The notes under the pieces: model-generated
The model's database searches: none
What the model was told of the DNA's origin: nothing
What the model saw: the letters and a program-made list of their open reading frames with translations, nothing else
NCBI GenBank assembly: GCA_963699255.1
Contig: OY969425.1
Location: 935,112 to 999,111 of the forward strand
Length of the DNA stretch: 64,000 nucleotides
Direction: 5' to 3'
Origin: an uncultured bacterium
Lineage (GTDB): Bacteria > Margulisbacteria > WOR-1 > CAVSGV01
Shown: in pieces, positions 3,727-63,150 of the stretch
How positions within the stretch are numbered: position 1 is the first letter of the stretch
How the letters are laid out: each line of letters opens with the position of its first letter
Translations under genes and position numbers: made by a program

Positions 3727-4584
3727 CTATTTAATGTCCTCATTTAAATATTTTAAAGATTTAGGCCTTGCCGGTGGGATAGGGATCACTCTGGAAACTT
3801 TTGTGGCTATATGTTTATTAAAATGTTGCTCTCCCGTCTTACAGAGAATCAGTCCATGTTCAACAAGAGAGGTCAGAGTTGGGGTTATAATAGGCACGGA
3901 TAAATGAGCGTGTGTTGCAATAAGGGCTTGTGAAGCGATTATGAGATTGCTCGGTTTCAACCCCCTCTTTTTTTCAAGCTCAACGATTCCGCAGTACGCC
4001 TTGAGCTCGGCCAATTTCAGATACTTCCACCATCCCATATAGAAAAAAGTCGGTATACCCATTCCCCGCATTGATCTTTCTCCATTATTTTTCGGGAAGT
4101 GGCTTTTATAGTAAGGGCAGTTGTCTTTGCCTAGAATACAGTACTGGGATAGCGGGCCGTTACATCCATAAACCTTATAGCCTCCTTTAATTTTTTGGCC
4201 CTCAGCTCCCTGCTTATATGCTGATGGGACACGATACTTCAATTTTTGTGCATCTAATTTTTCTGGTAACCTCGAATTCCATTCATTTAACTCTTGCAAG
4301 GCCTTTTCCTCAGGAAATCCATACTCCCTAAATTCTGTTGCGAGAATGAAGGCTGAATCATTTCTTGAGCCCTTAACTGCCCCAGTTGCCCAAAGGTATG
4401 CCACACAAGGCTTAATGACATCACAGGACACATTCAGTACATTAGACATATTTCGAACATGCTGTAATGCCTCAATCTCAGTATCGGTGTTTATGGTCTT
4501 TTCAATCATTGTTTCTCTAGCTTTCATTACAAGGACAATCCTTTTTACGATTTTTCTCTCATTCGGGTTTGCATGTATTGACAT
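3727..4584 (-). CDS. Replication-associated protein with PriCT-1-like (primase C-terminal) domain
   Basis: 285 aa; GSRNDSAFILATEFREYGFPEEKALQELNEWNSRLPEKLDAQKLKYRVPSAYK resembles the PriCT_1 helical domain of plasmid/phage primase-replicases. Confidence 0.5.
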   Translation of the reverse strand: MSIHANPNERKIVKRIVLVMKARETMIEKTINTDTEIEALQHVRNMSNVLNVSCDVIKPCVAYLWATGAVKGSRNDSAFILATEFREYGFPEEKALQELNEWNSRLPEKLDAQKLKYRVPSAYKQGAEGQKIKGGYKVYGCNGPLSQYCILGKDNCPYYKSHFPKNNGERSMRGMGIPTFFYMGWWKYLKLAELKAYCGIVELEKKRGLKPSNLIIASQALIATHAHLSVPIITPTLTSLVEHGLILCKTGEQHFNKHIATKVSRVIPIPPARPKSLKYLNEDIK

Positions 4585-4936
4585 GTGTCAACCCAATATA
4601 GAAAGTTCACAGCCTTCGTTGTATGATAAAAATCTAGGCACCAACCTCAAGCCACTTACAGGCGGTTGTTATGCCTCTTATTATTTATAATATGTCCGGG
4701 CTGGGTACCAATACCTTTTCTCTCAATGAACCTCCTCCCGTGTCTCAGTTACCTAACACTTTTCATCACCCTGTCACTGAGGCATTATTTTTCGCCTCCC
4801 TCTTTTTACGTGTGAATAGTGCTTCCTTGATTTGGGCTAAGCGCTTGTGTCAAGGTTGCGAATTTCGACATCGATATCTTCCAGTTCCCCTTTTGAATAA
4901 ATCGTGTCATAACAACTTCCTCCCCGTATGATTATT

Positions 4937-7085: not shown

Positions 7086-7237
<152 letters not shown>

Positions 7238-15952: not shown

Positions 15953-15954
15953 AG

Positions 15955-16035
15955 TAGAGATCAGAGACTGGAGACCAGAGATCGGAATAAGATCCAGGAT
16001 TTCTGATTTCTAATCTCTGATCTCTAATCTCTAAG
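15955..16035. repeat. Low-complexity imperfect palindrome (AGAGATC / GATCTCT motifs)
   Basis: AGAGATCAGAGA at the left and its reverse complement TCTCTGATCTCT at the right; shares the 19-mer CTCTGATCTCTAATCTCT with 30805-30823. Confidence 0.6.
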
Positions 16036-16043
16036 GATTTCTC

Positions 16044-16856
16044 ATGAACAAAAGCCCTGAACATAAATGGAACGCCGCCGACTACGCCGGTAATTCTTCG
16101 GCGCAGGCCAGGTGGGGGCGCGATCTTATCGCCAAACTCGAACTGCGGGGGGGCGAATCCGTCCTGGACATCGGCTGCGGCGACGGAAAGCTTACCGCCG
16201 CGCTTGCAAAGCAGCTTCCCAAAGGTTTCGTTCTGGGTGTGGATAATTCTATAGAGATGATCCGGTTTGCCAGGAAAAATTTCCCCTCTGATGGATTCCC
16301 CAACCTTTCTTTCAAGGTATGCGACGCGCGCAAGTTGAACTTTTCAAAAAAGTTCGACCTTGTGGTTTCTTTTTCCACTCTTCATTGGGTGAAAGACCAC
16401 ATGCCGGTACTCAAGAGAATTCTGCTCAGCCTTAAACCGGGAGGCAAGGCGCTCCTGCAGTTCGGAGGAAAAGGCAATGCCGCAGATATTTTAGCCGTTA
16501 CCGATGATGTCATTGCTGGCGGCAAATGGAAAAAACATTTCCGCCGTTTTATCTTTCCCTGGCATTTTTATGAGCCGAAAGAATACGGCGTTTGGGTAAA
16601 GGAGGCCGGTTTAAAGCCGAAGCGGATCGAGCTTGTTGAAAAAGACATGGTCCAGGAGGGCAAGGAAGGCCTTATCGGCTGGTGCAGGACGACGTGGCTG
16701 CCTTATGTCAGCCGCGTTCCGGCAGGTTTGCAGGATGAATTCCTGGCCGAGGTCGTTGATCGATATCTGGAGCGTTATCCGCTGGATGAAAACGGCCGCG
16801 CCCATGTTAAAATGCAGAGGCTGGAAGTGGAAGCATATAAAAAAAGTAAGAAGTGA
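16044..16856 (+). CDS. Class I SAM-dependent methyltransferase (Tam-like)
   Basis: W.AADY...Q..WGRDLI...VLDIGCGDGKLT pattern as in trans-aconitate methyltransferase-like enzymes. Confidence 0.7.
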   Translation: MNKSPEHKWNAADYAGNSSAQARWGRDLIAKLELRGGESVLDIGCGDGKLTAALAKQLPKGFVLGVDNSIEMIRFARKNFPSDGFPNLSFKVCDARKLNFSKKFDLVVSFSTLHWVKDHMPVLKRILLSLKPGGKALLQFGGKGNAADILAVTDDVIAGGKWKKHFRRFIFPWHFYEPKEYGVWVKEAGLKPKRIELVEKDMVQEGKEGLIGWCRTTWLPYVSRVPAGLQDEFLAEVVDRYLERYPLDENGRAHVKMQRLEVEAYKKSKK

Positions 16857-16884
16857 GAAGTTGAAAGGAAGAAGGAAATCGGTA

Positions 16885-17002
16885 CTTCTAACTTCTTCCT
16901 TCTCCCTTACCCCCTGTTCGCATCTCCCATCTCTCATCTCTTCTGTTGTCCCGATGTCCCGATCCGAAAGGCACCGTCTGGGAAATGAGAAAGATAGACT
17001 GA
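16885..17002 (+). repeat. Direct repeat L (~115 bp, pyrimidine-rich) flanking the ORF6N gene
   Basis: CTTCTAACTTCTTCC...CCCGATCCGAAAGGCACCGT(C/A)TGGGAAATGAGAAAGAT; roughly 85% identical to 17650-17759. Confidence 0.7.
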
Positions 17003-17005
17003 GCT

Positions 17006-17530
17006 CTACTCTCTCCCTTTTAGAAACCCGATATTCTTGGCCGTACGGTCCGGCATCTCAATAAGCTCATTTATAGCATCAAACACAGCCTTGAACTGGC
17101 CGTCATATTTTCTCTCAAGCTCTTCGATCTTCCTCCTCAAACCCTCATGACTTGAAAGTAATACTCTCAATTTAGTGAATGTCCGCATGATCTGGATGTT
17201 CACCTGGATAGCTCTTTTGCTTCTCAGGACAGAGGAAAGCATTGCTATCCCCTGTTCGGTAAATGCGAAAGGTTCGGAACCTCCGAAATAAGACTTTGAT
17301 GGTATGCCAAAATGGCAGACCATCTGATCGATCTCTTTTTGGGTCAGAACAAACATGAAATCGTCGGGAAATCTGTCAATATTCCTTTTCACCTGTCTCT
17401 TAAGTTGAAAATTTTCAACCCCATAAAGCGCTGCCAGGTCCTTATCAAGCATTACTTTTTTGCCTCTGAACAGATAAATATTTTTCTCGATAACCTCATG
17501 CGGAACCAGCTCACTTGCCACATTGATCAC
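17006..17530 (-). CDS. ORF6N-domain protein (KilA-N-like, phage antirepressor family)
   Basis: FRGKKVMLDKDLAALYGVENFQLKRQVKRNIDRFPDDFMFVLTQKE is the ORF6N signature; a coiled-coil ORF6C-like tail follows. Confidence 0.75.
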   Translation of the reverse strand: MINVASELVPHEVIEKNIYLFRGKKVMLDKDLAALYGVENFQLKRQVKRNIDRFPDDFMFVLTQKEIDQMVCHFGIPSKSYFGGSEPFAFTEQGIAMLSSVLRSKRAIQVNIQIMRTFTKLRVLLSSHEGLRRKIEELERKYDGQFKAVFDAINELIEMPDRTAKNIGFLKGRE

Positions 17531-17649
17531 CCCGTGGATAGTAGCAGCAATTTTAATTCCGCATATTTTATTCGTATGTAGAGCAAAATCGTGTAGTTAT
17601 TTTTGACAAGAGTAGTAATTCCCGACAGCAGTTCAAATTATACTTATAA

Positions 17650-17759
17650 CTTCTAACTTCTTCCTTTTTCCTTGTCCCTTGCTCCCATCTCACATCTCTC
17701 ACCTCTTCTCCTATCCCGATCCGAAAGGCACCGTATGGGAAATGAGAAAGATCGATTGA
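17650..17759 (+). repeat. Direct repeat R (~110 bp), partner of 16885-17002
   Basis: Same sequence family and same orientation as repeat L on the other side of the ORF6N gene. Confidence 0.7.
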
Positions 17760-17866
17760 TTTTCTTACAGGCAGATATCGTTGCCGGGGAATGTGGATGA
17801 GAAGAAAGTGAAGATTGAGAGGAAAGGAAGTAAAATTATCATCAGATACAATAAAGCTGATTTGTT

Positions 17867-18412
17867 CTAAATATCCACCAAAATGATTTTAACTGGGACT
17901 GACGGGAAATGTCTTTCTAATCTTTCAATATCAAAAACCAGCTGTTCACCATATGACACGCCAGTCGACATATACTTTTGAAGGTTGTGACACGGAACGA
18001 TTTCCACTCCCACATTCGCTCTGTTTGCATTGAAAAAATATTGGAATTTTGCGAGGTCATAAAACATAAAGGGATATTTTCCAAACTGGACTTCAATTAG
18101 AACTTTATCTTTAACAAAATCCACCTGCTTAAATGCTCCGGGGATCTTGATTTTTGAATTTGGAATCGTAAGAACATATTGATCCTTTAATTCCCTAAAG
18201 CCTCTTTTATGGAATGCATCTTTAAACTTTTGATTTAGGTCTTTTGGGGAATAGAGTTTTACACCCATCATAGTTTTTTCTTTGCTTACTTTCGTTTTTG
18301 TAACTTTTGTTATACTTTTAATAACATCATTGATTTCTTTGTTAATAGCAGGAAAAGTAACTTGGAGTATTTCGCTTCCGCCTAAATGAGAATATTCGTA
18401 TACTTTTTTCAT
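17867..18412 (-). CDS. Type II restriction endonuclease, BglII/BstYI-like (probable)
   Basis: 181 aa; QVDFVKDKVLIEVQFGK gives D-x8-E-x-Q spacing like the BglII catalytic triad (from memory); 4-bp overlap with the adjacent methyltransferase. Confidence 0.5.
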   Translation of the reverse strand: MKKVYEYSHLGGSEILQVTFPAINKEINDVIKSITKVTKTKVSKEKTMMGVKLYSPKDLNQKFKDAFHKRGFRELKDQYVLTIPNSKIKIPGAFKQVDFVKDKVLIEVQFGKYPFMFYDLAKFQYFFNANRANVGVEIVPCHNLQKYMSTGVSYGEQLVFDIERLERHFPSVPVKIILVDI

Positions 18413-19344
18413 ACTGCCGCCAACTCTCTGTCTTTGTATCCTAACGGATATGCAAATTGAATGGTTTCAGCTGGAACTTTATATATCGGCTTATTCATCG
18501 GGCGTGTTTTGATCGTTCCCTCAAAAGTTTCTTTAATTCGCTTTTTTGATATCTGAATATACTCGGGCATTATTTCTGCACCTATCGCTCTTCGGTGATG
18601 CAGAAGCGCTGCCACGGCAGTCGTTCCGGTTCCGATGAAAGGATCAAGGACGAGATCATCTTTTCGTGTCATAGCCAGGATCAATCTTTCAATGAGTTCA
18701 ACGGGAAACTGACATGGATGTTGCGTCTTCTCAACATGATTGTTCTTTACGTTTGGAATGTTCCACAGATCACCCGGATTTTTCCCAAGAGGATTACAAG
18801 AGAGCTGCCCCTTTTTGGGCCCTTTAAAATACTTCTTTTGAGGATATTTCTGAGGGATCCTTATTGGATCAAGATTAAATACATAATCATCGCTTTTCGT
18901 GAACCATAAGACCGATTCGTATCGGCCTGAAAGTCTTTTAGAGCAATGCAGGCCATGCTCAAAATGCCAGATTATTCTGTTGCGCAACTTTAACCCGAGT
19001 GATTTAAATATGGGGTATAAAACTGTATCAAGCGGGACTACTTCGCATCTATCAACATAATTTCCAACCTCCCAGCAAATACTCCCGTTTGGCAACAGTG
19101 TTCGCACACATTCCCTGATAACTGATTCCTGGAACGAGAGATATCGATCCAATGAGGTTTTCTTCTCATATTTCTTCCCTATATTATAGGGTGGGGAGGT
19201 AACGATAAGCTGAATTTTTTTGTCCGGTATTTGTTTAAGCAGATCAAGGCAGTCACCTGGGTAAAGGACGACCTTTGCATTTTCAGAGTAATTTTCGCAT
19301 ATTATTTTTGTCATATCTGAACCTAAATTGTCCATATTATACAC
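18409..19344 (-). CDS. DNA methyltransferase, beta-class, probably N4-cytosine
   Basis: Motif IV TSPPYN (SPPY favours m4C) precedes motif I DPFIGTGTT near the C-terminus. Confidence 0.85.
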   Translation of the reverse strand: MYNMDNLGSDMTKIICENYSENAKVVLYPGDCLDLLKQIPDKKIQLIVTSPPYNIGKKYEKKTSLDRYLSFQESVIRECVRTLLPNGSICWEVGNYVDRCEVVPLDTVLYPIFKSLGLKLRNRIIWHFEHGLHCSKRLSGRYESVLWFTKSDDYVFNLDPIRIPQKYPQKKYFKGPKKGQLSCNPLGKNPGDLWNIPNVKNNHVEKTQHPCQFPVELIERLILAMTRKDDLVLDPFIGTGTTAVAALLHHRRAIGAEIMPEYIQISKKRIKETFEGTIKTRPMNKPIYKVPAETIQFAYPLGYKDRELAAV

Positions 19345-19523
19345 CTCCAGAAACAGTATTCAATTTTAATGGTTGCTTTTAATGGTATACAAGTGTATAC
19401 TTAAAACAAAATTTGTCAAGCTGTTGTTTTTGCTAAGGAGACAATTATATTATTAATGGGACAGTAATAGATGTTTTTAAAGACTATAAGAATATTGTCC
19501 AAAAATAACAAGGGGGTGAGAAT

Positions 19524-19727
19524 ATGGCAAAGTATAATCGAAATTCAGGGAAACAGTGGAAAAGCGCTGAAGTGTCGCAATTAATATCCCTGGCAAAGCA
19601 AAATACTCCGACCAGGGTAATTGGGCTAAAATTGGGGAGGACGGAAGCTTCCATATATACGAAAGCATCACAAGAAAATATAAGCCTGCATCCGACCAAT
19701 CAATCACCATATAATAGGAGTAAATAA
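19524..19727 (+). CDS. Small hypothetical protein, possible HTH
   Basis: 67 aa; TPTRVIGLKLGRTEASIYTKA resembles a helix-turn-helix; divergent from the methyltransferase gene. Confidence 0.35.
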   Translation: MAKYNRNSGKQWKSAEVSQLISLAKQNTPTRVIGLKLGRTEASIYTKASQENISLHPTNQSPYNRSK

Positions 19728-19741
19728 AGGAGGAAAATATT

Positions 19742-20038
19742 ATGAAAGTAAGAAACATTAATGGCACAAGTGATAAGACCTGTAAATGTGGTAGCTGGAT
19801 TGATCATTGGAAGAAGTTTAGCGGTCAGTCAATTCCCGAATATTGCCCGGCAGAAGGTTGCTTGAATAAGTCCTTGGTGGGTGCTCATGTTCAGAAGGAT
19901 AGTAATTCTGATAATAACTGGTATATATTCCCACTTTGTAGCACATGTAATAATAAGAAGGGTGAATCTCTGGTTGTTAGCGACACTTATAAGCTGGTTT
20001 CGGCTAACGTCAGTGAGACTTGTGGAAAGCAATATTAA
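19742..20038 (+). CDS. Cys/His-rich small protein, possible zinc-binding HNH-like fold
   Basis: 98 aa; CKCGSWIDHW...CPAEGC...GAHV...PLCSTCNNKKG. The HNH-like reading is speculative. Confidence 0.4.
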   Translation: MKVRNINGTSDKTCKCGSWIDHWKKFSGQSIPEYCPAEGCLNKSLVGAHVQKDSNSDNNWYIFPLCSTCNNKKGESLVVSDTYKLVSANVSETCGKQY

Positions 20039-20523
20039 AAAGGGTTCTCCAATTAGTTGTCTAAATTATTGAAGTAGCGTAAAGAATGCGATGACTCAGA
20101 AGAAAATGTCGTGTAGTCAGTTTTCACTTTCGGTTGAGAACGGCCAGGCGGGGGTTACGGCATTTGCCGGGATGAAATTGGATTTTGATTTCTGAAGGGT
20201 TGTCCAGCCCTCATTTGTTGAGCTACTTTAAGTCAGAGTTAAGCATGGTTTGTCTCCCAACATTTCAATTTAATATGCCAAAATTACTTTATGGTTTCGA
20301 AATAGGTGATAAAATACATAAATATGCTAACTAGTTCAGATATTAAAAAGGCGATCAATAATTATGGGGCGGAATTCTTCTAAATTCAGAAGTAAGAAAG
20401 ATATCCAATTTTAAGGAGATCAGTATCCATTGGGATCAAGAAGGAGTATCTTCTAAGTCACTTGAAATATTTGACAAAAATTGCTACGAGGCAATATCCA
20501 AATTTACGAAGTATTTAGAGGCT

Positions 20524-20898
20524 ATGATGATAAACGAAGGTATTAAATATTCGGGTGTTTACTTGTGGGAGGATACATCTGATCATTTTACAAAAAACCC
20601 TTTTATCTCAGAAAAGTCAGATATTATCTATATCGGTAAAGCAGATAAAAATGTTTCTGCAAGACAAAGAAAAGCATTCGAATACCCAGTTGATTTTGTA
20701 AAAGCACGTATTGCGGCTTGGTTGGCAATTCAAAATAGACTTACCATATGGTTTAAGAAACTTGATGAAGCTATTGTAAAAAAAGAGGAAATAGAACTAT
20801 TAACTGGGCACTTTGCGGCATTTGGATGCTATCCTTTACTGAATATGAGAGTAGAAGCACAATTCAAGGTAAAGGATTGTTTTAATTTAGACAGATAA
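20524..20898 (+). CDS. Stand-alone GIY-YIG nuclease-domain protein
   Basis: 124 aa; SGVYLWE (GIY) followed by IIYIGKADKNVSARQRK (YIG plus conserved Arg). Confidence 0.55.
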   Translation: MMINEGIKYSGVYLWEDTSDHFTKNPFISEKSDIIYIGKADKNVSARQRKAFEYPVDFVKARIAAWLAIQNRLTIWFKKLDEAIVKKEEIELLTGHFAAFGCYPLLNMRVEAQFKVKDCFNLDR

Positions 20899-20931
20899 TC
20901 CCTGATGCGCCCGCAATAGAAGGGGGAAGAT

Positions 20932-21207
20932 ATGTTTGAACTTCTTAAAAGAATCAAAGCTGGTATTATAGGTTTTGCCCAAGGCTTTACTGGAGGTGAA
21001 AATTATCTTGATGCTGTTTCACAGATACCAGCTTGGAGAAAAGAGTATAAAGACCTAGTTGCAGGGTCAGATATCTTGAAGAAACATAACGATGTTCTAG
21101 AACGATTAACAAGAAATGAAAATCCAGAAATAGCTAAACTAGAAGCGGAAATCGCTGTAAAGCAGGCTAAATTGGAAAACCTTAAAGAGGAAATAGAAGG
21201 AAAATAA
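20932..21207 (+). CDS. Hypothetical coiled-coil protein
   Basis: 91 aa; C-terminal heptad-like EIAKLEAEIAVKQAKLENLKEEIEGK; 33 nt downstream of the GIY-YIG gene. Confidence 0.4.
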   Translation: MFELLKRIKAGIIGFAQGFTGGENYLDAVSQIPAWRKEYKDLVAGSDILKKHNDVLERLTRNENPEIAKLEAEIAVKQAKLENLKEEIEGK

Positions 21208-21308
21208 GCATTTTTATCTTCTTCCATCTAACATTTATCTAACACTTCGTTTCATTTTTTGCTGATTTTGACCGACTTACTCCGACTTTTCAATTTCAAT
21301 AAGGGGGC

Positions 21309-21504: not shown

Positions 21505-22185
21505 TTACACGCCTCCTTTTATCGAAATACTCTCCCGAAGAAATGGCTTTCCATGCCCCGGATAGATCGTTCTGATCTTCATTGTTCTTAGTTTTTCCAG
21601 GCTGCTCTTCAATTGCGCGGAATTCTCTATGATATTCGCTTCCGCGGGCTTTGTGCGGTTCGTGAACATATCGCCGCAGAAAAGATCGCCGTCATCGGTC
21701 AGGACAGAGAGCGAACCGGGAGTATGCCCCGGTGTATGAATAACTTTCGCCGAAACACCGTATTCCGCCAAACTCTGGCCGTCAGATAAAAGAATATCCG
21801 GCTTGAACCTTGGGTAACTCATCTTGTTCTTTTGGAACTTCCTCATCAGCATCCTGAAATTGAACATTACCCAGTATATAAAAGGCTTTATCTGGCGCTT
21901 CAACATTACCCCGTTCTCCACCTGCGCAACATCTCCGGCGTGCATGGCGGCCTTCACATTGTATTTTTCACGCAGCTTGGACACGTTACCGGTATGGTCC
22001 CAGTCCCCGTGCGTGATAACTATCAGCTTTAATTTCCAGGGCAGGCATCCTGCAGCGGCCAGCTGGCTGTCCAGGTTCTCCCACATATACGGCAATCCTG
22101 TATCGATAAGGACGAATCCGTCCTTTGCTTTTAAAAGAAAAGCATTTACCATGCCGAGGTCGATCGTTCTTATCGTTTCATCCAT
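21505..22185 (-). CDS. MBL-fold metallo-hydrolase
   Basis: ITHGDWDHTG motif; HTPGHTPGS downstream. Confidence 0.7.
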   Translation of the reverse strand: MDETIRTIDLGMVNAFLLKAKDGFVLIDTGLPYMWENLDSQLAAAGCLPWKLKLIVITHGDWDHTGNVSKLREKYNVKAAMHAGDVAQVENGVMLKRQIKPFIYWVMFNFRMLMRKFQKNKMSYPRFKPDILLSDGQSLAEYGVSAKVIHTPGHTPGSLSVLTDDGDLFCGDMFTNRTKPAEANIIENSAQLKSSLEKLRTMKIRTIYPGHGKPFLRESISIKGGV

Positions 22186-29895: not shown

Positions 29896-30651
29896 ATGAA
29901 CTTATCCGGCAATACGGTCCTGATAACCGGCGGAGCGACGGGGATCGGATATGCGATGGCGGAGGCGTTCCTTGAAGCCGGCAGCGAAGTCCTGATCTGC
30001 GGGCGCAGGGCGACCAGGCTGCGCGAAGCGCAAAAGAACCATCCCGAATTCCATAATAAAGTTTGCAACATTGCGGATGATAAGGATAGAAAGTCCCTTT
30101 TCGAGTGGGCGACGTCGAATTTCAGGGATCTGAACGTCCTTGTGAACAATGCCGGCATTCAGCGCGACATAGACCTGACAAAGGGCCTTTATGAGATCAC
30201 CTCGGGCGAAAACGAGATAAAGGTAAACCTGGAAGCGCCGATATATCTCTCCGCGCTGTTCATCCCGTTCCTGGCGAAAAAGAAAGGTGCGGCGATAATA
30301 AACGTATCATCCGGGCTTGGTTTTGTGCCGGCAGTCAAGATGCCGATATACAGCGCGACAAAAGCCGGCGTCCACGCTTACAGCATGGTCCTGAGGCAGC
30401 AGATGTTAAAGATCGGCATAAAAGTTTATGAAGTGATACCGCCGACGGTGGACAGCGAGCTGAACAAAGAAGGAAGGGCGAAGAGGCACATGCCGGCGCC
30501 GGAGCTTAAGCCGAAGGAATTCGTAGCCGCCGTAATGAAGGGGCTTCAGCAGGATGAACCAGAGATAGGTTACGGCATGTCGGCAGGGTTCAAGACCGCT
30601 TCAAGGGCCGATCTGGACAAGAGTTTTCAGATGATGAACAGCAGAATGTAA
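29896..30651 (+). CDS. Short-chain dehydrogenase/reductase (SDR)
   Basis: TGGATGIG cofactor motif, NNAG and catalytic YSATKAG; start moved to the ATG at 29896 with RBS AGGGGGA. Confidence 0.85.
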   Translation: MNLSGNTVLITGGATGIGYAMAEAFLEAGSEVLICGRRATRLREAQKNHPEFHNKVCNIADDKDRKSLFEWATSNFRDLNVLVNNAGIQRDIDLTKGLYEITSGENEIKVNLEAPIYLSALFIPFLAKKKGAAIINVSSGLGFVPAVKMPIYSATKAGVHAYSMVLRQQMLKIGIKVYEVIPPTVDSELNKEGRAKRHMPAPELKPKEFVAAVMKGLQQDEPEIGYGMSAGFKTASRADLDKSFQMMNSRM

Positions 30652-30654
30652 ATG

Positions 30655-30830
30655 ACAAAACCCAAATGTCAAAATCCAAATGAATCATTTAAAGCCAAAT
30701 AACAAACCGGTCTTTCGTGTTCATTTGGAATTGGTCATTCTGTCTTGATTCATTTGTCATTTGATATTGGACATTTGTCATTATGCCCCCGTTAATCTCT
30801 ATTCTCTGATCTCTAATCTCTGCTTTTGTG
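30655..30830. repeat. Intergenic low-complexity repeat element (TGTCATTTG / AAATGACAAA motifs plus CTCTGATCTCTAATCTCT)
   Basis: Imperfect palindrome; the segment at about 30745-30786 (GATTCATTTGTCATTTGATATTGGACATTTGTCATTA) recurs at about 63113-63149, and the 19-mer recurs at about 16013-16031. Confidence 0.65.
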
Positions 30831-34438: not shown

Positions 34439-34909
34439 TTAATATCCATTTCCGGACGGAGATGGCGCTACCGGAGGCACAGGAGCCGGAGCTTCGGGAG
34501 CCATAGGAGCCGAAGGAGCTGGAGCTTCCGGAGCCGCAGGCGCCACAGGAGCCGGAGCTTCCGGAGCCGGGGTCACAACAGGCGCCGCCGGTGCCGCCTC
34601 AGGAGCCGTTGCCGGAACTGTCGCAGTCGACGTCGGTACCACTACGGGAGCCGGAGCTGCTGCCGGCGCCACAGCCGGTGCCGCAGCCTTGACCGGTTTA
34701 GCCGCCTTTGGAGCCGCCTTTTTTACAGCCGCTTTCTTCACTACCCTCTTTATCTTTTTAACCTTTTTGACCTTTACAACTTTGGAAGCTTCGGTCGTGG
34801 ACGCTGGTTTCGTCATTGACGGAGCATTTACAACATCAGCCGAGGCCACAAGAGAGAACGCACCCAGGCAGAAAGCCGCCATAACAAGCCAACTTATCTT
34901 TTTCATCAT
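34439..34909 (-). CDS. Secreted protein with Lys-rich and Ala/Pro-rich low-complexity regions
   Basis: Signal peptide MMKKISWLVMAAFCLGAFSLVASA; KVKKVKKIKRVVKK block then APxAP repeats; the DNA is internally repetitive. Confidence 0.5.
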   Translation of the reverse strand: MMKKISWLVMAAFCLGAFSLVASADVVNAPSMTKPASTTEASKVVKVKKVKKIKRVVKKAAVKKAAPKAAKPVKAAAPAVAPAAAPAPVVVPTSTATVPATAPEAAPAAPVVTPAPEAPAPVAPAAPEAPAPSAPMAPEAPAPVPPVAPSPSGNGY

Positions 34910-54384: not shown

Positions 54385-54545
54385 TTCCAATGACCAATCC
54401 CAAATAAATACCAATTAATTTGCAATTACCAATTTGACAATTGACCGCTAAGTACAAAAGCGCACAATTTGTCTTATTTCATTGACTAATTGGACATTGG
54501 TCATTAATTTGACATTTGACACTGGAAATTGGTAATTGATTTTCC
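54385..54545. repeat. Low-complexity intergenic repeat (CCAAT / ATTGG and TTGACA motifs)
   Basis: CCAATGACCAATCC...CAATTACCAATTTGACAATTGACC...TTGGACATTGGTCATTAATTTGACATTTGACACTGGAAATTGGTAATTG with inverted symmetry. Confidence 0.55.
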
Positions 54546-63029: not shown

Positions 63030-63150
63030 TTTCAAAATCCAAATGACAAAGCTCAAAGGAATCTATTAAATCCAAATCAAACAAAAACATTTCCCTTGAT
63101 TTGTCATTCTCAGATTCATTTGTCATTTGATATTTGTCATTTGTCATTAC
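63030..63150. repeat. Second copy of the TGTCATTTG-type intergenic repeat
   Basis: GATTCATTTGTCATTTGATATTTGTCATTTGTCATTA at about 63113-63149 nearly matches 30745-30786; it overlaps the last codons and stop of the substrate-binding gene. Confidence 0.65.

Follow-up and report, generated by a model that had tools for sequence, protein, structure and literature searches.

Phage defence candidate (PDC) families were identified by a search for genes lying inside loci for type I restriction-modification, BREX and DISARM, and the study that defined them does not address how such small genes come to stand in or beside restriction-modification and immune loci (bioRxiv 10.1101/2024.01.29.577857). One representative of the PDC-S05 family, which carries a RhuM domain, was reported to reduce the plating of phages T7 and T5 about 1000-fold (bioRxiv 10.1101/2024.09.26.614923). 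The stretch of DNA analysed here, a 64-kb segment of contig OY969425.1 from an uncultured member of the Margulisbacteria (hereafter the window), holds an ORF6N-domain gene related to PDC-S05. PADLOC describes PDC-S05 as embedded in defence loci, and the window gene likewise adjoins a restriction-modification pair. It stands between two long direct repeats, R1 and R2, and is a clean example of a one-gene cassette in this arrangement. Our favoured explanation, to which we give about an even chance, takes R1 and R2 for the two halves of the insertion scar of a single-gene cassette devoid of a recombinase. The block and its right-hand neighbour are composed as follows.

16884 to 17002, plus strand: repeat copy 1 (R1), 119 nt, consisting of tract, duplication and core
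17006 to 17530, minus strand: ORF6N-domain gene, 174 aa, GTG start (public gene call P0001 is the same protein, 171 aa)
17531 to 17648, minus strand: cassette-internal upstream region, 118 nt, with boxes common to the four closest homologous loci
17649 to 17759, plus strand: repeat copy 2 (R2), 111 nt, with the same tract and core as R1
17760 to 17870, plus strand: relic 3' end of a small heat-shock protein (sHSP)-like gene, reading FSYRQISLPGNVDEKKVKIERKGSKIIIRYNKADLF and a stop; it corresponds to the second purine arm described earlier

The alignment of R1 and R2 comprises 96 matches, 15 mismatches and one 8-nt gap, which amounts to an identity of 86.5% over aligned columns (80.7% when the gap is counted) and confirms the direct repeats of about 85% identity that a first-pass annotation of this DNA had reported. 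The gap corresponds to a tandem duplication of TGTCCCGA in R1 (16947 to 16963). The left 70 nt or so of R form a degenerate period-7 pyrimidine array (Tandem Repeats Finder units CATCTCT and ACTTCTA), extending from 16884 to about 16955 in R1, and are followed by a 46-nt core that ends in TGA (16957 to 17002 in R1, 17714 to 17759 in R2). Identity between the copies is 52/63 in the tract and 43/46 in the core. The conserved core with which the repeats had been said to end was also recovered, its 38-nt pattern CCCGATCCGAAAGGCACCGTNTGGGAAATGAGAAAGAT occurring exactly twice in the window and never in 100 shuffles. Moreover, the independent Logan assembly of run ERR10755942 (a 6.4-kb contig) is identical over its alignment to window positions 16701 to 18000, and the repeat is therefore no assembly artefact. 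On the minus strand, R1 starts 3 nt past the ORF6N stop codon, while R2 lies 118 nt upstream of the ORF6N start, with its right edge adjoining the sHSP-like relic. Neither an inverted repeat inside R nor terminal inverted repeats were found.

The core can be read in a plus-strand frame, PDPKGTVWEMRKID, with the final triplet of the repeat as its stop codon; the frame is continuous with that of the sHSP-like relic. The three differences between the two cores (16978, 16996 and 16999) share the same codon phase and are synonymous in this frame. No homologues of the PDPKGTVWEMRKID peptide were detected by tblastn against the homologous loci or by a large protein search with core and relic.

The 875-bp block from R1 to R2 encodes the ORF6N gene only, as had been noted from the open reading frames (ORFs): one ORF (17006 to 17530, minus strand) lies between the repeats, and its product matches Pfam ORF6N (PF10543) over residues 17 to 101 with an E-value of 2e-31 and a score of 108.6 bits, against a gathering cut-off of 27.8 bits. 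In addition, three PADLOC profiles of the candidate defence family PDC-S05 match the whole length of the protein, the best one being PDLC04856 (E-value of 3.2e-53 over residues 7 to 164). The predicted structure comprises an N-terminal winged-helix/KilA-N-like DNA-binding domain and three C-terminal helices, and no catalytic fold was found in the model. The window protein matches a candidate anti-phage family, and any activity of its own against phage is putative; it differs from the PDC-S05 representative reported to act on phages, with its RhuM domain, in being ORF6N-only. The full-length PDC-S05 match, together with the presence of an ORF6N homologue in only 3 of 50,697 phage records, makes the former label of an antirepressor-like gene doubtful.

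Homologues with 51-69% identity occur in Margulisiibacteriota, Omnitrophota, Planctomycetota, Nitrospirota, Patescibacteria, Bacteroidota and others, a spread from which we infer frequent horizontal transfer. Plasmid homologues are 40-51% identical, too distant for an empty-site comparison. Within the 118 nt upstream of the start codon, two boxes are common to the window and its four closest homologous loci, box 1 at about 17591 to 17610 (cTTGTCAAAAATAACTACAc) and box 2 at about 17541 to 17565 (CGGAATTAAAATTGCTGCTACTAT, -10-like), with coordinates read by eye from the sequence. These boxes are probably the ORF6N gene's own promoter or operator. An upstream box, GATAATTGCT, was also considered as a general feature of such cassettes and discarded, being confined to the closest subfamily and not enriched (21/179 vs 25/267).

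Evidence from the wider family carries most of the argument. In about 120 homologous loci (designated by L numbers), the 700 nt upstream of the gene were compared with the 700 nt downstream on the same strand, and direct repeats of at least 28 bits were scored. The repeat-bearing fractions were the following.

Named genomes: 19/68 loci
Shifted positions in the same loci, as a control: 2/114
Other ORFs of 120-260 aa in the same loci, as a gene-centred control: 3/109
Independent metagenome set: 13/54
Pooled, duplicates removed, all genes: 28/118
Pooled, solitary genes, with tandem arrays set aside: 20/105

Flanking repeats are therefore about 7-fold enriched around the ORF6N family, across many phyla (Fisher test, p=1e-7 for named genomes vs shifted positions and p=1e-4 for solitary genes vs the gene-centred control). 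They measure 22-306 nt, with identities of 77-100%. In 7 of the 20 solitary repeat-bearing loci the downstream copy starts between -11 and +33 nt from the ORF6N stop codon (p=2e-4), and in the window it does so at +3. The repeat sequences are genome-specific in every inspected case and, where identifiable, correspond to flanking-gene or intergenic sequence, as in the following loci.

L009: last 67 nt of a comM-like gene, stop included
L033: last 75 nt of the upstream gene
L066: 128 nt including the 5' end of the downstream gene
L072: 128-nt intergenic segment
L003: 25 nt, made of the last 10 nt of the tmRNA gene (tmRNA confirmed) and 15 nt more

Inverted repeats of at least 24 bits accompany 7/118 genes vs 0/143 controls; they are mostly palindromes inside the direct repeats and were rejected as a general feature of the family. 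As a separate observation, in L088 (2700 to 4030) and L002 (2100 to 4000), which belong to the closest relatives, the ORF6N and 23S_rRNA_IVP genes (four-helix-bundle, bAvd-like) each lie between inverted purine/pyrimidine (Pu/Py) heptamer tracts, in the order Py-ORF6N-Pu-IVP-Py; if the tracts paired, each small gene would sit in the loop of a very long stem.

ORF6N genes often occur as diverged paralogues in tandem arrays. Three tandem ORF6N genes with 24-nt spacers stand directly upstream of leuS in L171 (Parabacteroides distasonis NZ_OY725801.1, 1840 to 3573), and arrays are present as well in L002, L007, L010-L013, L050 and L160. The two tandem genes of L007 (Margulisiibacteriota) have best matches to the window protein that are only 54% and 65% identical, and behind them lies a conserved ORF of about 44 aa (MYKVIYRMPYNCLREIYMRPSELRTWLKWHWLRRRIVTYE...; 3800 to 3935 and 4500 to 4635) with 87-92% nucleotide identity. 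The same ORF is found beside an ORF6N gene at about 3800 to 3935 of L005, a metagenome-assembled genome labelled only 'bacterium'.

Several comparisons point to movement of the ORF6N genes themselves. Coding blocks that are 88-94% identical lie in unrelated flanks in the pairs L035/L118, L064/L068, L119/L125, L068/L162 and L135/L161, and their homology stops at or near the ends of the coding sequence or a few hundred bases beyond. Together with the survey of the homologous loci, these blocks lend support to the earlier suggestions of a mobile cassette or a recombination footprint. The slot occupied in the window also varies. In L086, an orthologue of the gene that precedes it, encoding a methyltransferase dependent on S-adenosylmethionine (SAM), is found at 82.5% nucleotide identity and is followed by a convergent ORF6N gene of another lineage, about 65% identical to the window gene at the nucleotide level over part of its length. 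In L087, a related metagenome contig, the slot after the orthologous SAM-methyltransferase holds other genes and no ORF6N gene. This variation implies at least two uses of the slot. The first-pass annotation had held that a local duplication in single copy and without polymorphism would speak against a cassette; in this regard, no other copy of R was found, while the slot is polymorphic, with a different ORF6N gene in L086 and none in L087. A difference between L037 and L110 at the ORF6N stop was rejected as a repeat-flanked insertion, since it is a microhomology deletion.

A recurrent neighbour of the family is comM. At least 12 ORF6N homologues from several phyla lie directly after comM/yifB-like 3' ends, co-oriented and 2-47 nt downstream (L006, L009, L015, L018, L020, L021, L045, L054, L091, L100, L105 and L123), and in L006 the predicted ORF6N start overlaps the comM stop. 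A second, diverged comM copy stands past the ORF6N gene in two of them, as a 3' end in L009 and as a gene-internal fragment in L020. The last 120 nt of comM, considered as a segment that might travel with the cassette, show a mean identity of 65.5%, vs 47.9% for upstream comM; conservation may account for this as well, the protein being most conserved at its C-terminus, and several of the contigs compared are short. The adjacency reflects either a recurrent insertion target or a conserved operon. Codon-phase and synonymous/non-synonymous counts in the coding repeats of L009, L033, L133 and L143 fit an in-situ duplication and an imported copy alike.

The surroundings of the cassette in the window are set out below.

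16044 to 16856, convergent to the ORF6N gene: SAM-dependent methyltransferase gene, left border of the islet
16848 to 16878, plus strand: purine-rich segment overlapping the last codons and stop (16854 to 16856) of the SAM-methyltransferase gene
16860 to 21300: low-GC islet of 4.4 kb, with a GC content of 0.32-0.44 vs 0.50-0.57 in the flanks
17867 to 18412, minus strand: BglII-like endonuclease gene of a type II restriction-modification pair
18409 to 19344, minus strand: N6/N4 DNA methyltransferase gene of the same pair
21505 to 22185: metallo-beta-lactamase-fold gene, right border of the islet

Given the drop in GC between about 16860 and 21300, the islet looks foreign. It contains the ORF6N gene, which lies at its edge, the restriction-modification pair (17867 to 19344), located upstream of the cassette on the same strand, and four small ORFs. 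The ORFs tested between 5.4 and 26.7 kb included no integrase or transposase. As for the relic, window positions 17762 to 17842 match the final codons of an sHSP-like gene in L087 (5660 to 5740) with 89% identity, and this homology sets in no more than 2 nt from R2's outer edge. The only cluster homologous to the 36-aa relic among 1.84 billion representatives is the L087 protein, and the intact sHSP-like gene (210 aa) comes from that one related metagenome contig only. The relic stop (17868 to 17870) overlaps the stop of the convergent BglII-like endonuclease gene (17867 to 17869).

The left-hand purine segment and the first 25 nt or so of R1 form a heptamer pattern of purine arm, loop and pyrimidine arm, which recurs after two other stop codons in the window (15953 to 16034 and 30651 to 30821). 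Degenerate period-7 arrays follow stop codons at these two places and at 54502 to 54538 and 63040 to 63149; they often consist of complementary purine/pyrimidine arms, such as AGAGACC... / GATCTCT... or AATGACA... / TGTCATT..., and resemble a lineage-specific type of intergenic sequence. Similar heptamer tracts flank ORF6N genes in loci of other phyla (L029, L079, L088, L104 and L134). A second purine-rich segment lies at 17799 to 17830. The purine complements and long hairpins announced by the first-pass annotation held up in part: both segments are present and minimum-energy folds pair them with the repeats, whereas the fold energies computed on each strand for the two repeats together with their purine segments are no better than those of dinucleotide shuffles (z = -0.13, -1.17, -0.17 and -0.10). 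The hairpin reading was dropped on this ground, and the right-hand segment was rejected as a hairpin arm since it is the relic 3' end of the sHSP-like gene, at 89% identity.

We propose the following model for the origin of the locus. Originally, a single R of about 115 bp would have separated the SAM-methyltransferase gene, at its 3' end, from the sHSP-like relic. This R would have combined the pyrimidine arm of the heptamer hairpin that is usual after stop codons with the 46 nt next to it. A cassette of 643 bp would then have entered at R, bringing a promoter region of its own and the coding sequence of the ORF6N/PDC-S05 gene, with its end at about the stop codon, so that R came to be present on either side. 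Entry could have taken place through a long target duplication; alternatively, a circular form of the cassette could have borne a homologous R and undergone a single crossover with the R of the chromosome. Since then the two copies would have diverged to about 86%, or they might never have been identical. As the cassette encodes only a DNA-binding protein, recombination would have to be provided in trans, either through homologous recombination of the host or through a recombinase whose gene lies elsewhere. At both outer edges the sequence has a native appearance: on the left, the purine arm with the R1 tract is similar to other post-stop hairpins, and on the right, homology to L087 resumes at R2. 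The outer-edge homology, the R1 tract beside its purine partner and the frame of the core would fit one original R duplicated upon entry of the cassette.

Some of our observations weigh against this model. An empty site with a single R was not found in loci L086 and L087, and L087, which has no ORF6N gene, has no R either. The identity of 86% and the indel between the copies would be expected of an old event or of two different sources, and our data fit both. The codon-phase argument for the core is weak, involving 3 sites and a peptide with no detectable homologue. Furthermore, a 23-nt core pattern gave 0 exact matches in each of the genome, viral and metagenome collections. The copy count of R covers the 64-kb window, the remaining ~1.7 Mb of the source genome lying outside it, and a dispersed R family may still be compatible with the data. 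At the level of the family, about 80% of solitary homologues are devoid of a detectable flanking repeat, some repeat-bearing loci reflect low-complexity tracts, and neither conserved cassette ends beyond the promoter boxes of the subfamily nor a recombinase in the cassette were found.

The close rival to the insertion scar, possible though doubtful in our judgement, is that R1 and R2 are the terminal direct repeats of the cassette itself. The mobile unit would then span 16884 to 17759 and would have landed in or beside the sHSP-like gene, truncating it; excision and integration would proceed by recombination between the two tracts, or between a tract and a similar intergenic heptamer tract. 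That homology to L087 resumes at the outer edge of R2, with nothing homologous to the left of that edge, agrees with such a unit, as does the presence in the closest relatives of a low-complexity purine/pyrimidine tract before the promoter boxes and of another after the gene. Both tracts of L003 lie inside the tmRNA-derived repeats, and the order tract-gene-tract is also seen in L088 and L002. However, the two tracts of L003 have no similarity to each other by blastn and repeat search, and those of L088 share a 27-nt match only, unlike R1 and R2. Sensitive blastn and nhmmer searches of loci L001-L087 yielded no further copy of R, which is thus absent beside any other ORF6N gene found there, and the repeats of the clearest other loci are host gene ends rather than element ends. 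A local duplication without mobility, which we regard as unlikely, would account for the layout by tandem duplication of R plus the gene followed by a deletion, or by slippage or template switching in the heptamer tracts. Period-7 tracts are indeed prone to slippage, R1 has its 8-nt tandem duplication, and patchy extra partial copies lie beside the repeats of L072 and L066. Nevertheless, at least two events would be required, no trace of a second ORF6N copy is seen, and both the family-wide enrichment of about 7-fold and the position of the downstream copy at the stop codon would be left unexplained.

R might instead be a functional cis element placed after each minus-strand unit, R2 after the endonuclease gene and R1 after the ORF6N gene, acting as a terminator, a structure in the 3' untranslated region, a small RNA, an ORF6N binding site or a member of a dispersed family resembling repetitive extragenic palindromic (REP) sequences or miniature inverted-repeat transposable elements (MITEs). 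We consider this quite unlikely. Both copies do lie downstream of minus-strand genes, and the core is better conserved than the tract (43/46 vs 52/63). Against it, no intrinsic terminator (GC-rich hairpin with a T-run) was found on either strand of 16700 to 18000, nor any strong promoter; the same interval has five weak promoter-like matches, none of them within R and none on the minus strand upstream of the ORF6N gene. Rfam 15 covariance models returned nothing at gathering scores for the repeat, only chance-level miRNA-type matches at E<=10, and the folds carry no signal. These results speak equally against the duplicated regulatory or terminator module entertained before. Besides, R is present in only two copies in the 64 kb (blastn with 7-nt words and nhmmer profiles of repeat and core gave no third), is absent from the three collections and has no terminal inverted repeats. 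Defence genes are known integron cargo, and the order gene-repeat-gene-repeat, with a repeat of 111-119 nt, within the attC range, immediately 3' of the cassette ORF, recalls an integron-like array of the kind termed CALIN (clusters of attC sites lacking integron-integrases). This reading is highly improbable and was rejected, considering that R does not form an imperfect palindrome, that its ends are without RYYYAAC...GTTRRRY boxes, that it has no fold signal and occurs only twice, that no integrase was found among the ORFs tested at 5.4-26.7 kb, that the cassette has promoter-like boxes of its own and that elsewhere the repeats are host gene ends.

Two further features of the window lie outside the cassette. 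Direct repeat pairs at 7111 to 7170/11871 to 11930 and 7204 to 7251/11925 to 11972 are 92-93% identical, have a sequence like a tRNA 3' end (GGTTCAAATCCTACCCCCGCTAC) and bracket about 4.7 kb with genes for DUF134, a NifB/NifX-like protein, DUF2099, an ArsR regulator, a thioredoxin and a methyltransferase. Their layout is like that of the attachment (att) sites of an integrated islet; no tRNA was found there by ARAGORN, no Rfam match at E<=0.1 and no integrase. In addition, positions 34464 to 34577 hold 9-nt-periodic repeats of GGAGCN type in 7 overlapping 39-nt copies, probably a Gly/Ala-rich repetitive coding stretch.

Our survey suggests that the direct-repeat signature of the window recurs around about a fifth of the relatives, in many phyla and often at the classic targets comM and tmRNA, with a cassette devoid of a recombinase. 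If so, the spread of embedded defence genes would become directly testable, and recently acquired ones could be spotted by a sequence signature. A broader proposal, which we advance tentatively and hold to be rather unlikely, is that ORF6N/PDC-S05 genes constitute an unrecognised class of minimal mobile element, made of a DNA-binding gene and its promoter, ending at the stop codon and devoid of a recombinase. Their insertion sites would be the ends of conserved genes (comM, tmRNA, restriction-modification genes) and intergenic tracts, where they would leave long, variable, host-derived direct repeats that keep both neighbours intact, and the ORF6N protein might direct or stimulate the recombination. 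This would be how genes become embedded in defence loci.

The locus shares traits with several described systems. Short tandemly repeated heptamer sequences (STRR) occur in heterocystous cyanobacteria. The left 70 nt of R and several intergenic tracts of the window are likewise degenerate period-7 arrays; STRR differ from them in lineage and units, and the window arrays usually form complementary purine/pyrimidine arms after stop codons. An insertion sequence or transposon can be rejected, as no transposase was found among the ORFs tested and the repeats of 22-306 nt are not short target duplications of fixed length. R has no terminal inverted repeats or palindromic unit, which also sets it apart from MITEs. 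Like the cassettes of integrons and CALIN, ORF6N cassettes are small and mostly single-gene, have a repeat directly 3' of the ORF, and show repeats that are similar within a genome and different between genomes. They differ in that R is devoid of the palindromic architecture and boxes of attC, in the absence of IntI, in having promoter-like boxes of their own and in that the repeats elsewhere are host coding sequence. Campbell-type integration of circular DNA by a single crossover yields the same layout of segment, insert and segment, with repeats of whatever length and an identity that need not be perfect; it is normally met with in the laboratory or in plasmids and has not been described as a routine route for a natural single-gene cassette.

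Finally, integrative islets at the ends of tRNA, tmRNA and other conserved genes, and their recombinase-less derivatives, the cis-mobilizable elements (CIMEs), are bracketed by direct repeats of the target sequence, as the ORF6N cassettes appear to be. Of the features of a site-specific integrative element, direct repeats of target sequence are present here and an integrase in the element is not. The ORF6N cassettes carry a single gene of 0.5-0.9 kb between repeats of 22-306 nt that are 77-100% identical, and the target in the window is not an RNA gene but low-complexity intergenic sequence, with no cognate integrase identified. They share with these elements the tmRNA 3' end (L003) and comM 3' ends (12 loci) as targets and, with CIMEs, the lack of a recombinase in cis. 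In this comparison, R behaves like an att-type duplication around a recombinase-less islet.

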